This document shows, in pieces, positions 10,618 through 62,413 of a DNA stretch of 64,000 nucleotides; position 1 is the first letter of the stretch; the number at the start of each line of letters is the position of its first letter. The position numbers and the translations under genes were made by a program. The stretch is from Burkholderiaceae bacterium (GTDB lineage: Bacteria; Pseudomonadota; Gammaproteobacteria; Burkholderiales; Burkholderiaceae_C). The stretch lies in assembly GCA_031253955.1 (NCBI GenBank), contig JAIRVJ010000126.1, positions 20,342 to 84,341 of the forward strand. The letters are read 5' to 3'. A model generated the notes under the pieces. That model saw only the letters and a program-made list of their open reading frames with translations. It did no database searches and was not told where the DNA came from.

Positions 10618-10706
10618 CCCTCTCCCGCACGCGGGCGAGGGGAAAGAAAGGCAGGTGCCTATGCGCCTGCGCGGAGGCAGGCTCGTTCCCCTGTGGGCGG
10701 GGGAAA
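10618..10706. repeat. Degenerate family D hairpin arms with a CTATG|CGC junction
   Basis: CCCTCTCCCGCACGCGGGCGAGGG, then GCCTATG|CGCCTGCGCGGAGGCAGGCTC. Confidence 0.6.
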
Positions 10707-23393: not shown

Positions 23394-23565
23394 CTTGACT
23401 TCCCTGCATTCGTTTTCCCGTCATTCCCGCGAAGGCGGGAATCCATGAGCGCCACCTCTTATAACGGCCTATGAGCTGAAACCAATCTTGATGGATTTCC
23501 TGTCATTCCCGCGCAGGCGGGAACTTCGCGGGAATGACGATGAAAAAGTCAAATACGCAGTTCCC
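23394..23565. repeat. Class-1 family A element (inverted homologue of 2881-3043) with a nested extra REP
   Basis: Spacer and flanks align with the reverse complement of 2881-3043; extra GTCATTCCCGCGCAGGCGGGAA at 23502-23523 lies inside the right copy. Confidence 0.85.
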
Positions 23566-23596
23566 ATAAAAAATGCTCCACAGAAACACGGCAGAG

Positions 23597-24253
23597 ATGG
23601 AAACCCTGGCCGCCCGCATACAAACCGCCCTGCCCCAAACCCAATGCACCCGCTGCGGCTTTGCCGACTGCGCCGCGTACACGCAAGCGGTGGCGGCAGG
23701 GCAAGCGCCCATCAATCAGTGCCCGCCCGGCGGCGCTGAAGGCGTGCGGCGGCTAGCCGCGCTCACCGGCCAGCCCGCCCTGCCCCTAGATCCCGCACGC
23801 GGCGCGGAGGCGCCGCGGCAAGTGGCCTGGATCGACGAAGCCTGGTGCATCGGCTGCACCCTGTGCATCAAAGCCTGTCCGGTCGATTGCATCATCGGCG
23901 CGCACAAACGCATGCACACTGTCATCGAGGAACAATGTACCGGCTGCGCCCTGTGCGCGCCCGCCTGCCCGGTCGATTGCATCATGCTGGAAAACGCAAG
24001 CGGCGCGCGCACCGGCTGGGATGCGTGGTCCGCCAGGCAAGCCGCTCAGGCCCGCGCCCGCTACGAATTTGCCAGCGCGCGCCGCCAGCGCACCGCCCAA
24101 GAACACGCCCAGCGGCTGCAAGAAAAAGCCGAGCACAAACTGGCTCACCTGCCCGAACTCACCAAAGGCGCCACCGGCGCTGAACTGGAGCGCAAACGCG
24201 CCGTCATCAAAGCGGCACTGGCACGGGCGCGGCAGCGGCGGGAAGGTTGTTGA
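23597..24253 (+). CDS. rsxB: Electron transport complex subunit RsxB/RnfB-like ferredoxin
   Basis: LPQTQCTRCG..DC, NQCPPGG, CIGCTLCIKACPVD, CTGCALCAPACPVDCI. Confidence 0.85.
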   Translation: METLAARIQTALPQTQCTRCGFADCAAYTQAVAAGQAPINQCPPGGAEGVRRLAALTGQPALPLDPARGAEAPRQVAWIDEAWCIGCTLCIKACPVDCIIGAHKRMHTVIEEQCTGCALCAPACPVDCIMLENASGARTGWDAWSARQAAQARARYEFASARRQRTAQEHAQRLQEKAEHKLAHLPELTKGATGAELERKRAVIKAALARARQRREGC

Positions 24254-24276
24254 GTGTTGAGCGTTGAGCGTTGAGC
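24249..24276 (+). repeat. 4 x 7-bp tandem repeat (GTTGAGY)
   Basis: gttgagt gttgagc gttgagc gttgagc, overlapping the rsxB stop. Confidence 0.8.
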
Positions 24277-24305
24277 AATCCTGTTCAGTCAAGACATTTC
24301 AAGCT

Positions 24306-24597
24306 GTAATTCCCGCGGAGGCGCATAGCCGCCAACTTGAGGTAAGTGCGCGGTTTTCTCCCTCCACCGCGGGCGGGGGAGGGCTGGGGTGGGGGCGCAC
24401 GGCGCTGAAAAAAGCACTGCGTTTACGATGCGCCGCTGCCCCCCATCCCTACCTTCCCCCGCAAGCGGGGGAAGGGGTAAAACGCCAGCGATTTGTCCTT
24501 AAGTTAGCGCCTATGCGCGAAAGCGGGAATCCACTGGGCCTTGGTCACCGCCGGGCGATGAACGCGCCGTATGGATTCCCGACTTCGCGGGAATGAC
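24306..24597. mobile_element. Class-2 family A doublet whose left REP is split by a 192-bp family D element (24324-24515)
   Basis: GTAATTCCCGCGGAGGCG | CATAGCCGCCAACTT ... AAGTTAGCGCCTATG | CGCGAAAGCGGGAATCCA. Confidence 0.75.
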
Positions 24598-24650
24598 GAA
24601 ATTCACTTGACTGAACTGTATCGGGGCGTTTGGGGGCATATTCAAAATTA

Positions 24651-33999: not shown

Positions 34000-34066
34000 C
34001 GCCGGTTTGGGAAATCGTCATTCCCGCACACCTCACGCCGAGATCGTAAACACGTTCTAAGGGCCA

Positions 34067-34234
34067 ATCGCTGGCGTTTTGCCCCTTCCCCCGTTTGCGG
34101 GGGAAGGTTGGGATGGGGGCAGCAGCGCATCGCAAACGCGGTGTTTGTTGCAGCGCCGTGCGCCCCCACCCCAGCCCTCCCCCGCGCGCGGGGGAGGGAG
34201 AAAACCGCGCACTTGCCCCAGGTTAGCGCCTATG
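34067..34234. mobile_element. Family D element (inverted near-copy of the 24.35-kb element)
   Basis: About 150 bp align with the reverse complement of 24345-24495; ends AGGTTAGCGCCTATG|CGC. Confidence 0.8.
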
Positions 34235-34255
34235 CGCGCGAGCGGCCATGACGGA

Positions 34256-62160: not shown

Positions 62161-62282
62161 GGTGGAAATTCCCTCGTAAAAAATGAGAATGGGCGCAGCG
62201 CGTCCAGTATGCAATGGTACACATCCCAGCCATTGCCGCCAAGCGCGCATATTGGAACAATCAAGCGCATTTTGCGCCGCTC

Positions 62283-62373
62283 GCCCCCACCCCAACCCTC
62301 CCCCGCACGCGGGGGAGGGAGAAAACCGCGCACTTACCCCAAGTTAGCGCCTATGCGCCTTCGCGGGGATGAC
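62283..62373. repeat. Single family D arm with terminal AAGTTAGCGCCTATG joined to a half family A REP
   Basis: Hairpin arm 62283-335; AAGTTAGCGCCTATG|CGCCTTCGCGGGGATGAC. Confidence 0.75.
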
Positions 62374-62413
62374 GATAAATTTGATGCAGGTTCCTGAGCA
62401 GGAGAAATTCATA

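Follow-up and report, generated by a model that had tools for sequence, protein, structure and literature searches.

REPs are documented targets of insertion sequences of the IS3, IS110, IS4, IS256 and IS5 families (PMC1525189). In the IS4 family, all copies of ISRm22 (IS4Sa subgroup) of Sinorhizobium meliloti lie in REPs, inserted at the axis of the palindrome (PMC1525189; PMC2266710). The IS231 subgroup of the same family, to which IS231A/MIC231 of the Bacillus cereus group belong, is characterized by ends of the form CAT-------AA--TAA, direct repeats of 10-12 bp, a length of 1450-5400 bp (De Palmenaer et al., PMC2266710) and target specificity (PMC2266710). The IS231A/MIC231 system includes non-autonomous derivatives with the same ends. 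The target consensus of IS231A, worked out by Hallet et al. in 1994, is reportedly GGG-N5-CCC. REPs also serve as landing pads, broken at one fixed position, for ISPpu9/10, ISPa11 and IS621 of the IS110 family, and dRS3 does so for the Nf prophage, the recombinase of which targets it (PMC1797815; PMC7058167).

dRS3 is contained in the Neisseria NTS sequence CGTCATTCCCGCGMAVGCGGGAATCYRG (PMC11893778) and is identical with the CGTC-1 family of REPs, which has an 8-bp stem and a 4-nt loop and occurs mostly as head-to-head dimers (Di Nocera et al., PMC3733652). The SsnA GIY-YIG nuclease is a frequent but not obligatory partner of NTS-type REPs. In the Neisseria NIMEs, repeats of 50-200 bp, some of them with short inverted ends, lie between REP copies (PMC1797815). 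Whole 20-bp dRS3 copies flank these RS elements, and the proposed mechanism is site-specific recombination.

Here we describe a repeat family, family D, in a 64,000-nucleotide stretch of DNA (the window) from a Burkholderiaceae bacterium. The preliminary description of the window had proposed that this family uses a REP family as a landing pad and enters it at a fixed position. Our analysis indicates that family D is, with high probability, a non-autonomous MITE derived from an IS4-family insertion sequence with the ends CATAGGCGCTAACTTAAG, and that it entered the REP by cut-and-paste transposition with a 10-bp duplication.

The window sequence contains the 192-bp insert with 15-bp terminal inverted repeats (13/15 matching), as previously described, and REP core is present on both of its sides, 10 nt in each case (Table 1). 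The order of the parts is GTAATTCC-CGCGGAGGCG / CATAGCCGCCAACTT...192 bp...AAGTTAGCGCCTATG / CGCGAAAGCG-GGAATCCAC, and the right side also reads CGCGAAAGCG-GGAATCC. Each flank holds a part of one 20-bp palindromic REP, and the two parts share exactly 10 nt (CGC-N4-GCG); the overlap has the same length at all the family D copies that could be paired by their ends in the genome. The REP that carries the insert is the left member of a convergent doublet, and the partner REP is intact.

Table 1. Positions of the split REP, its doublet partner and the family D copies in the window
Feature	Position	Strand	Basis or remark
Split REP, left arm GTAATTCC	24306..24313	+	Window sequence; CGTC tag degenerated to TGTA
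Target-site duplication, copy 1, CGCGGAGGCG	24314..24323	+	REP core: 3-nt stem, 4-nt loop, 3-nt stem
Family D element, 192 bp, non-coding, very probably an IS4-family (IS231/ISH8-like) MITE	24324..24515		Paired copies; ends common to transposase-bearing elements
Left terminal inverted repeat CATAGCCGCCAACTT	24324..24338	+	Window sequence and terminus search
MITE interior, inverted hairpin-arm pair (CCCTCC..GGGGAGGG and TGGGGTGGGGG)	24345..24495		Genome BLAST of the element
Right terminal inverted repeat AAGTTAGCGCCTATG	24501..24515	+	Window sequence and terminus search
Target-site duplication, copy 2, CGCGAAAGCG	24516..24525	+	Window sequence
Split REP, right arm GGAATCCAC (CC-side arm)	24526..24534	+	Window sequence
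Spacer of the REP doublet	24535..24572		Window sequence
Intact partner REP of the doublet, GGATTCCCGACTTCGCGGGAATGACG	24573..24598	- (opposite orientation)	Window sequence
One-ended family D copy	34058..34234	-	Terminus AGGTTAGCGCCTATG (34220-34234) adjoins REP remainder CGCGCGAGCGGCCATGACG (34235-34253)
Truncated family D copy	62274..62355	-	Terminus (62341-62355) adjoins REP remainder CGCCTTCGCGGGGATGACG (62356-62374)
Degenerate D-like terminus (10/15) and partial REP remainder, weak member	10649..10681	+	Sequence inspection

With up to three mismatches, the terminus has five matches in the window, where 0.88 are expected by chance, and none of 100 shuffles reached five. The CTATG/CGC junction had been reported to recur at three further places in the window. 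The junctions at 34234/35 and 62355/56 belong to real copies, each of which has only one end; in the former, a different module stands in place of the opposite terminus. The site at 10663/64 is only a weak relic, where the REP remainder stops after CGCCTGCGCGG, and a BLAST search of the genome with the 192-bp element gave no match at this site. In the same search, element positions from about 35 to 160 matched many loci, and positions 1-192 matched few. The interior of the MITE is a separate repeat family, far commoner than family D, which is found without D ends at about a hundred loci.

The genome from which the window was taken (G000; 2.60 Mb, 64% GC, 167 contigs) was then searched for the terminus with up to two mismatches. 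In 43 of the 48 termini, CGC-N4-GCGGGAAT comes next, always at offset 0 and never at another, and the background of this template is 6e-4 per position. Three of the remaining termini adjoin a REP remainder that is degenerate or has an internal deletion, and two look like chance matches. Thus, the terminus is not mostly found beside non-REP sequence, and the position of the junction does not wander. The same terminus and CGC junction are present in two sister species (G005 and G012). The use of the REP as a fixed-position landing pad by another repeat family therefore holds genome-wide, in both sister species and in the autonomous relatives described below.

Pairing of the termini in G000 gave 20 complete copies of 100-243 bp and not a single long pair, which means that the assembly contains no autonomous copy; tblastn and a profile search of the assembly found no cognate transposase either. 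BLAST gave an identity of about 85-91% between the D copies and the one in the window. We considered the identity of the direct repeats as a test of target duplication in this genome and found it uninformative: two randomly chosen REPs have all 10 core bases in common in 24% of pairs and at least nine in 68%, and the 10-mers on the two sides of a D copy resemble each other no more closely than do the cores of two random REPs. For this reason, the duplication in G000 rests on the constant 10-nt overlap of the REP halves and on the relatives of the element.

The split REP is the commonest hairpin repeat of the genome, a 20-bp palindrome ATTCCCGC-N4-GCGGGAAT. About 345 copies gave the consensus CGTC-ATTCCCGC-N4-GCGGGAAT-CC, and with GMAG as the loop this equals the Neisseria NTS; 203 copies are oriented CGTC/CC, and only 22 of the 345 are symmetric (CGTC/CGTC). 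About half of all the REPs sit in convergent doublets, namely 170 REPs in 85 pairs with the CGTC sides outward and with discrete spacer classes, and one divergent pair was found. In 45 of the 85 pairs, the two loops are identical as reverse complements, where 30% would be expected by chance. By its sequence, the repeat belongs to the CGTC-1/dRS3/NTS type, with which it shares the stem ATTCCCGC, the 4-nt loop, the CGTC tag and the head-to-head dimers. No small SsnA-like GIY-YIG gene (about 94 aa) was found in the genome, where the sole Pfam GIY-YIG match lies in a 738-aa frame. SsnA cleavage was also considered as the source of the junction and was rejected, as the cut was mapped upstream of the palindrome in the published work and not inside it. 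A different compound, a 'REP inside a REP' (CGTCATTCCCGCG(A/C)AG-TTCCCGCCTGCGCGGGAATGAC-AGGGAATCC; - strand of the window at 23493-23538), occurs in 36 conserved copies in the genome. Here, a reverse-oriented REP of 22-23 nt lies directly 3' of the loop of another REP. It looks like the insertion of a REP into a REP with a junction unlike that of family D, and might bear on the movement of CGTC REPs.

To identify the source of the ends, we scanned one genome per prokaryotic species (596 Gb in total) for the exact 15-mer AAGTTRGCGCCTATG and obtained at least 120 loci. By chance alone, 596 Gb should contain a given 15-mer thousands of times, and single matches are therefore meaningless; pairing of inverted termini gave 41 elements among the matches listed, to which all the counts in this paragraph refer. 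The hosts are Acidobacteriota, Verrucomicrobiota, Chloroflexota, Alpha-, Beta- and Deltaproteobacteria and members of other phyla. Thirty-five of the 41 listed elements are not of autonomous size: 32 measure 88-614 bp, and three looser pairings are of 1.9 kb, of 2.4 kb and a 300-bp nested duplicate. The other six (L084, L096, L111, L128, L135 from Rhizobium rhizogenes NBRC 13257, and L137) are 1327-1400 bp long, and all six have perfect 11-bp direct repeats. A direct repeat with at most one mismatch was found in 28 of the 41 listed elements (11 bp in 24, 10 bp in three and 12 bp in one). The targets of the listed elements exceed random positions of the same loci in palindromic character, with 8.0 of 15 symmetric pairs against 5.5 (control sd 1.5), and the duplicated sites are GC-clamped, many of them being terminator-like or REP-like hairpins. 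As a separate observation, hairpins much like the interior of D are targets of the same IS lineage in other phyla (L039, L109 and L121).

At both ends of the six long elements, the first 15 bases (CATAGGCGCTAACTT) are the same, or almost the same, across phyla, and the identity extends to 17-18 bases in L111 and L135. The transposases of L084, L096, L111 and L135 have a mutual identity of only 29-62%. We examined these four and that of L128, each a single ORF of 361-395 aa. The L128 ORF used (395 aa, + strand), where the longest frame lies on the opposite strand, gave no BLASTP match to the other transposases at E <1e-5. Pfam DDE_Tnp_1 (PF01609) scored above the cut-off in all five. The NCBIfam model NF033592 (IS4 family transposase; cut-off 115) gave 144-150 bits for L084, L096 and the G001 copy described below, and 110.5-110.7 bits, 4-5 bits below the cut-off, for L111 and L135. 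In the alignment of the transposases, Y299, R302, E306 and K313 are invariant, which is the signature Y(2)R(3)E(6)K of the IS4 family (PMC2266710). Family D itself is short, non-coding and multicopy, and has the terminal inverted repeats and the target duplication of a transposase-bearing element. The duplication amounts to about one helical turn (about 10 bp), with 10-12 bp across the relatives among the matches listed and 10 bp in G001.

The consensus end CATAGGCGCTAACTTAAG has CAT at positions 1-3, AA at 11-12 and TAA at 15-17, which is the signature of the IS231 subgroup, and the long elements, at 1327-1400 bp, fall just under the size range of this subgroup. A home in the ISH8 subgroup (CAT ends, 10-bp repeats, proteobacteria) is equally possible, judged by the ends and the size. 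A search for the name of the IS through annotated plasmids found 'transposase' as the sole annotation. The lineage resembles IS231A/MIC231 in its ends, in its 10-12-bp repeats (PMC2266710) and in having non-autonomous derivatives with the same ends. The GGG-N5-CCC target reported for IS231A also resembles the S-rich clamps of the D relatives among the matches listed. Unlike IS231, the D lineage occurs in Proteobacteria, Acidobacteriota and other phyla and not in Firmicutes, its autonomous copies are 1.33-1.40 kb long instead of 1.45-5.4 kb, and the preferred target here is a genomic REP. We also tried to delimit the element differently, by assigning 18 bp to the end and taking the 4-bp loop as the duplication. 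This fails because the three bases adjacent to the end co-vary with the REP of the host: in G001 they are GCC and not GCG, in keeping with the REP variant found there, and other phyla have unrelated bases at these positions.

Forty-nine genomes of the genus were searched with a profile of the five transposases. Nothing was found in G000, G005 or G012. In G001, we found three full copies, each of 1389 bp and with the ends CATATGCGCTAACGT (13/15 to D). They sit in the local REP variant ATTCCGGC-N4-GCCGGAAT, between ATTCC and GGC, and all three have a perfect 10-bp duplication (GGCTTTCGCC twice and GGCTTGCGCC once) within unrelated outer flanks. These copies show the 10-bp duplication directly, and at the same position of the REP. 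The longer, recombinase-encoding element with these termini that had been suggested as something to look for thus exists in G001 and, among the matches listed, in other phyla, but is absent from the assembly of G000.

It should be considered whether family D and its flanking half-REPs form one composite, NIME-like unit that was spread by homologous recombination, gene conversion or segmental duplication. Three of the copies (C104:29313, C50:1930 and C8:2384), all with CGTC-side arms on both flanks, share at least 30 bp of outer flank beyond the REP halves and thus evidently spread as a larger duplicated segment, and the Neisseria NIME arrays have been described as dynamic substrates of recombination (PMC1797815). 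Between species, moreover, the whole mosaic of REP and D is present or absent as a block. When the flanks of 10 loci were queried, four were syntenic; at three of these (C100, C23 and C75), the relatives have short intergenic regions with neither REP nor D, and no alignment was obtained for the region at the fourth (C150:17104). The genes that flank the window locus lie on different contigs in G005 and G012, and the comparison of filled and empty sites with these two sister species recovered no empty site with an intact REP. On the other side, the outer flanks are unrelated for most copies, the same ends occur in other phyla beside wholly different targets with perfect direct repeats (matches listed), and the autonomous copies in G001 made 10-bp duplications de novo in three REPs with different flanks. 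A composite unit is therefore an unlikely source of the arrangement as a whole; it explains the secondary spread of some copies and not the origin of the junction.

We return to transposition of an IS4-family MITE and to the way in which its ends were joined to the REP. Two mechanisms had been put forward, staggered cuts around the hairpin loop and core-type recombination. The cognate elements encode IS4-family DDE transposases and have perfect 10-11-bp direct repeats, so that the first is right and the second, of the kind used by IS110 elements or in phage integration, is not supported. In its explicit form, the second would have an IS110/Piv-type DEDD recombinase or a tyrosine recombinase integrate D conservatively at a core in the REP loop. 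Enzymes of the IS110 type are known to target REPs and dRS3 (PMC1525189; PMC7058167), and the genome has two genes for DEDD transposases (C58:55499 and C13:21546), but no D terminus lies near either of them. IS110/Piv elements combine a DEDD enzyme with ends that are not inverted and a core duplication of 0-2 bp, and D shows none of these features. REP-targeting IS110 elements and the Nf prophage depend on an RNA-guided DEDD recombinase, leave a duplication of 0-2 bp and have no terminal inverted repeats, whereas D has inverted repeats of 15-18 bp, is flanked by 10 nt of REP on both sides, in contrast to the 0-2 bp of DEDD or tyrosine enzymes, and shares its ends with elements that encode DDE transposases of the IS4 family. 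We consider this mechanism very improbable.

The REP hairpin might also have been recognized by a Y1/HUH enzyme (of the RAYT or IS200/IS605 type) that moved D as single-stranded DNA. Genes for Y1_Tnp proteins are present in the genome and one of them is flanked by REPs, but these are of a different family (GTTGGGG..CCCCAAC), and Y1 elements have neither terminal inverted repeats nor target duplications. Strand-specific insertion 3' of a fixed tetranucleotide with no duplication was not seen for D. This is the least probable of the explanations considered, and we give it almost no weight. The RAYT-like gene in question (C13:23020-23560) has the REP GTTGGGG-N-AGCC.TAGGCGAACCCCAAC on both sides, and an IS110-type transposase gene (C13:21489-22601) lies about 500 bp upstream of it. 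Identical fragments of a Y1 transposase are found at contig ends (C17:6-104, C141:6-104 and C61:114-290), which suggests a multicopy element of the IS200/IS605 type that breaks the assembly.

For the insertion of D as an IS4-family MITE, we propose the following course. A DDE transposase with the Y-2-R-3-E-6-K signature would cut the two target strands about one helical turn apart and join the ends of the element to them, and repair of the gaps would produce the 10-11-bp duplication. The lineage prefers short GC-clamped palindromes and would centre the staggered cuts on the dyad. In the REP, a pair of enzyme molecules would attack at symmetric positions, ATTCC/CGC in either strand, which lie 10 bp from each other about the dyad, and CGC-N4-GCG would so be left on both sides. 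An even palindrome with a 4-nt loop would yield 10 bp, and the odd-loop hairpins of other hosts 11 bp. As the most abundant GC-clamped palindrome of G000 is the 20-bp REP, the element always enters between ATTCC and CGC on each strand. The steps of symmetric attack and gap repair are drawn from standard DDE chemistry and from the observed junctions. The copies in G000 may have arisen by means of a transposase that was supplied in trans and has since been lost. With an identity of only about 85-91% and no cognate transposase in the assembly, the D copies are probably old and no longer mobile.

A second IS4-family element was found in G000 itself. It lies at C112:758-2062 (1305 bp), has perfect 19-bp inverted ends (CACTGCTGTCCGGAATAAA) of the IS4Sa type (CA------T), and encodes a protein with DUF4372 and DDE_Tnp_1 domains (NF033592, 205 bits). 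This element splits a REP at the identical position as D (GGATTCCCGCCTTCGCG / IS / CGCCTGCGCGGGAATGACG), and the two copies of the 10-bp duplication match at nine of 10 positions. A derivative of about 290 bp, again a MITE, occupies the same REP position at C158:1728-2018, inside the inner REP of a nested REP. The C112-type and D-type transposases have common sequence only in the C-terminal YREK region; two different IS4 lineages thus converge on the same two phosphodiester bonds of the REP. With its IS4Sa-type ends and its insertion in a REP, the C112 element is like ISRm22. Family D is like ISRm22 in belonging to the IS4 family, in lying within REPs and in inserting at the palindrome axis (PMC1525189; PMC2266710), but ISRm22 makes 6-bp repeats (PMC1525189) instead of 10-bp ones, has different ends, and is an autonomous element and not a MITE family.

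It had been stated that the insert splits a single REP. About nine of the 20 complete copies are flanked by a CGTC side and a CC side (CGTC/CC), as expected for this, and for about half of the complete copies the statement stands. The other half carry CGTC-side arms on both flanks (CGTC/CGTC, about 10 copies), and no copy is flanked by two CC sides. In eight of the 10 CGTC/CGTC-flanked copies, the loop is in its native orientation on each flank, and two pairs have rare loops that are reverse complements of each other (GTAG/CTAC and GAAA/TTTC). We infer that these copies are collapsed REP doublets. The element would have been inserted into one REP of a convergent doublet, and the hairpin-forming interior (the inner arms and the spacer) would then have been deleted, either by hairpin-promoted deletion between CGC triplets or by recombination between two insertions. 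Since the doublets always have their CGTC sides outward, only CGTC/CGTC products can arise from such a collapse, and the loops of doublets are correlated, as shown above. Two other origins were rejected. A foldback origin does not agree with the two subterminal arms, which are of different types, and an inversion through recombination of one D copy with another should have produced equally many CC/CC-flanked copies, of which none was seen. Among the matches listed, three MITEs of the same lineage as D (L060, L086 from Reyranella and L142 from Azospirillum sp. SYSU D00513) have flanks that are inverted copies of each other at 12-13 of 14 positions and lack a direct repeat. The REP that holds L142 is of the CGTC type (CGTCACCCCCGC-GAAG-GCG / ... 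/ CGC-TTTC-GCGGGGATGACG), and the CGTC/CGTC pattern is that seen in G000.

The mosaic of G000 resembles the Neisseria NIMEs in the type of REP, CGTC-1 being dRS3 (PMC3733652) and part of NTS CGTCATTCCCGCGMAVGCGGGAATCYRG (PMC11893778), and in the presence of short repeats, some with short inverted ends, between REP copies (PMC1797815). Unlike the RS elements between their whole dRS3 copies, family D is a MITE flanked by two 15-nt parts of a REP that overlap by 10 nt, which is a signature of DDE transposition. The insertion of D in the REP clearly exemplifies what insertion sequences were already known to do; notable in this case are the NTS/dRS3 repeat as the target, the convergence of two lineages, the deep conservation of the ends, and the putative route through doublet collapse to NIME-like units. 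The dRS3/NTS hairpins, which a phage recombinase and the Ssn nuclease were previously known to target, join the REPs that serve DDE transposases as safe landing sites. A 'repeat inside a repeat' becomes annotatable as a MITE, a target duplication and a REP doublet, and reading it as a MITE in a REP accounts for much of the mosaic in the intergenic regions of the genome. Because the 17-18-bp end has been kept across several phyla and across transposases that are about 29-62% identical, it is a handy probe for this IS lineage.

A more general view is speculative, and we regard it as rather doubtful at present: at least two unrelated IS4 lineages (the D type and the C112 type) might read the dRS3/NTS dyad as a generic hot spot defined by structure, and insertion followed by doublet collapse might generate units in which a repeat is flanked by inverted dRS3 arms. 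If true, this would provide a concrete transpositional origin for NIME-like arrays, perhaps including the unexplained RS elements of Neisseria.

Other short repeats were noticed near the D loci and elsewhere in the genome. Tandem short GTTGAGCG(T) repeats (gttgagtgttgagcgttgagcgttgagc) lie at 24252-24279 of the window and begin where the upstream ORF (23573-24253) has its stop codon, and such tandem repeats also occur in the flanks of several other D loci. In addition, the motif acgctcaacgc is repeated across many intergenic regions of the genome.
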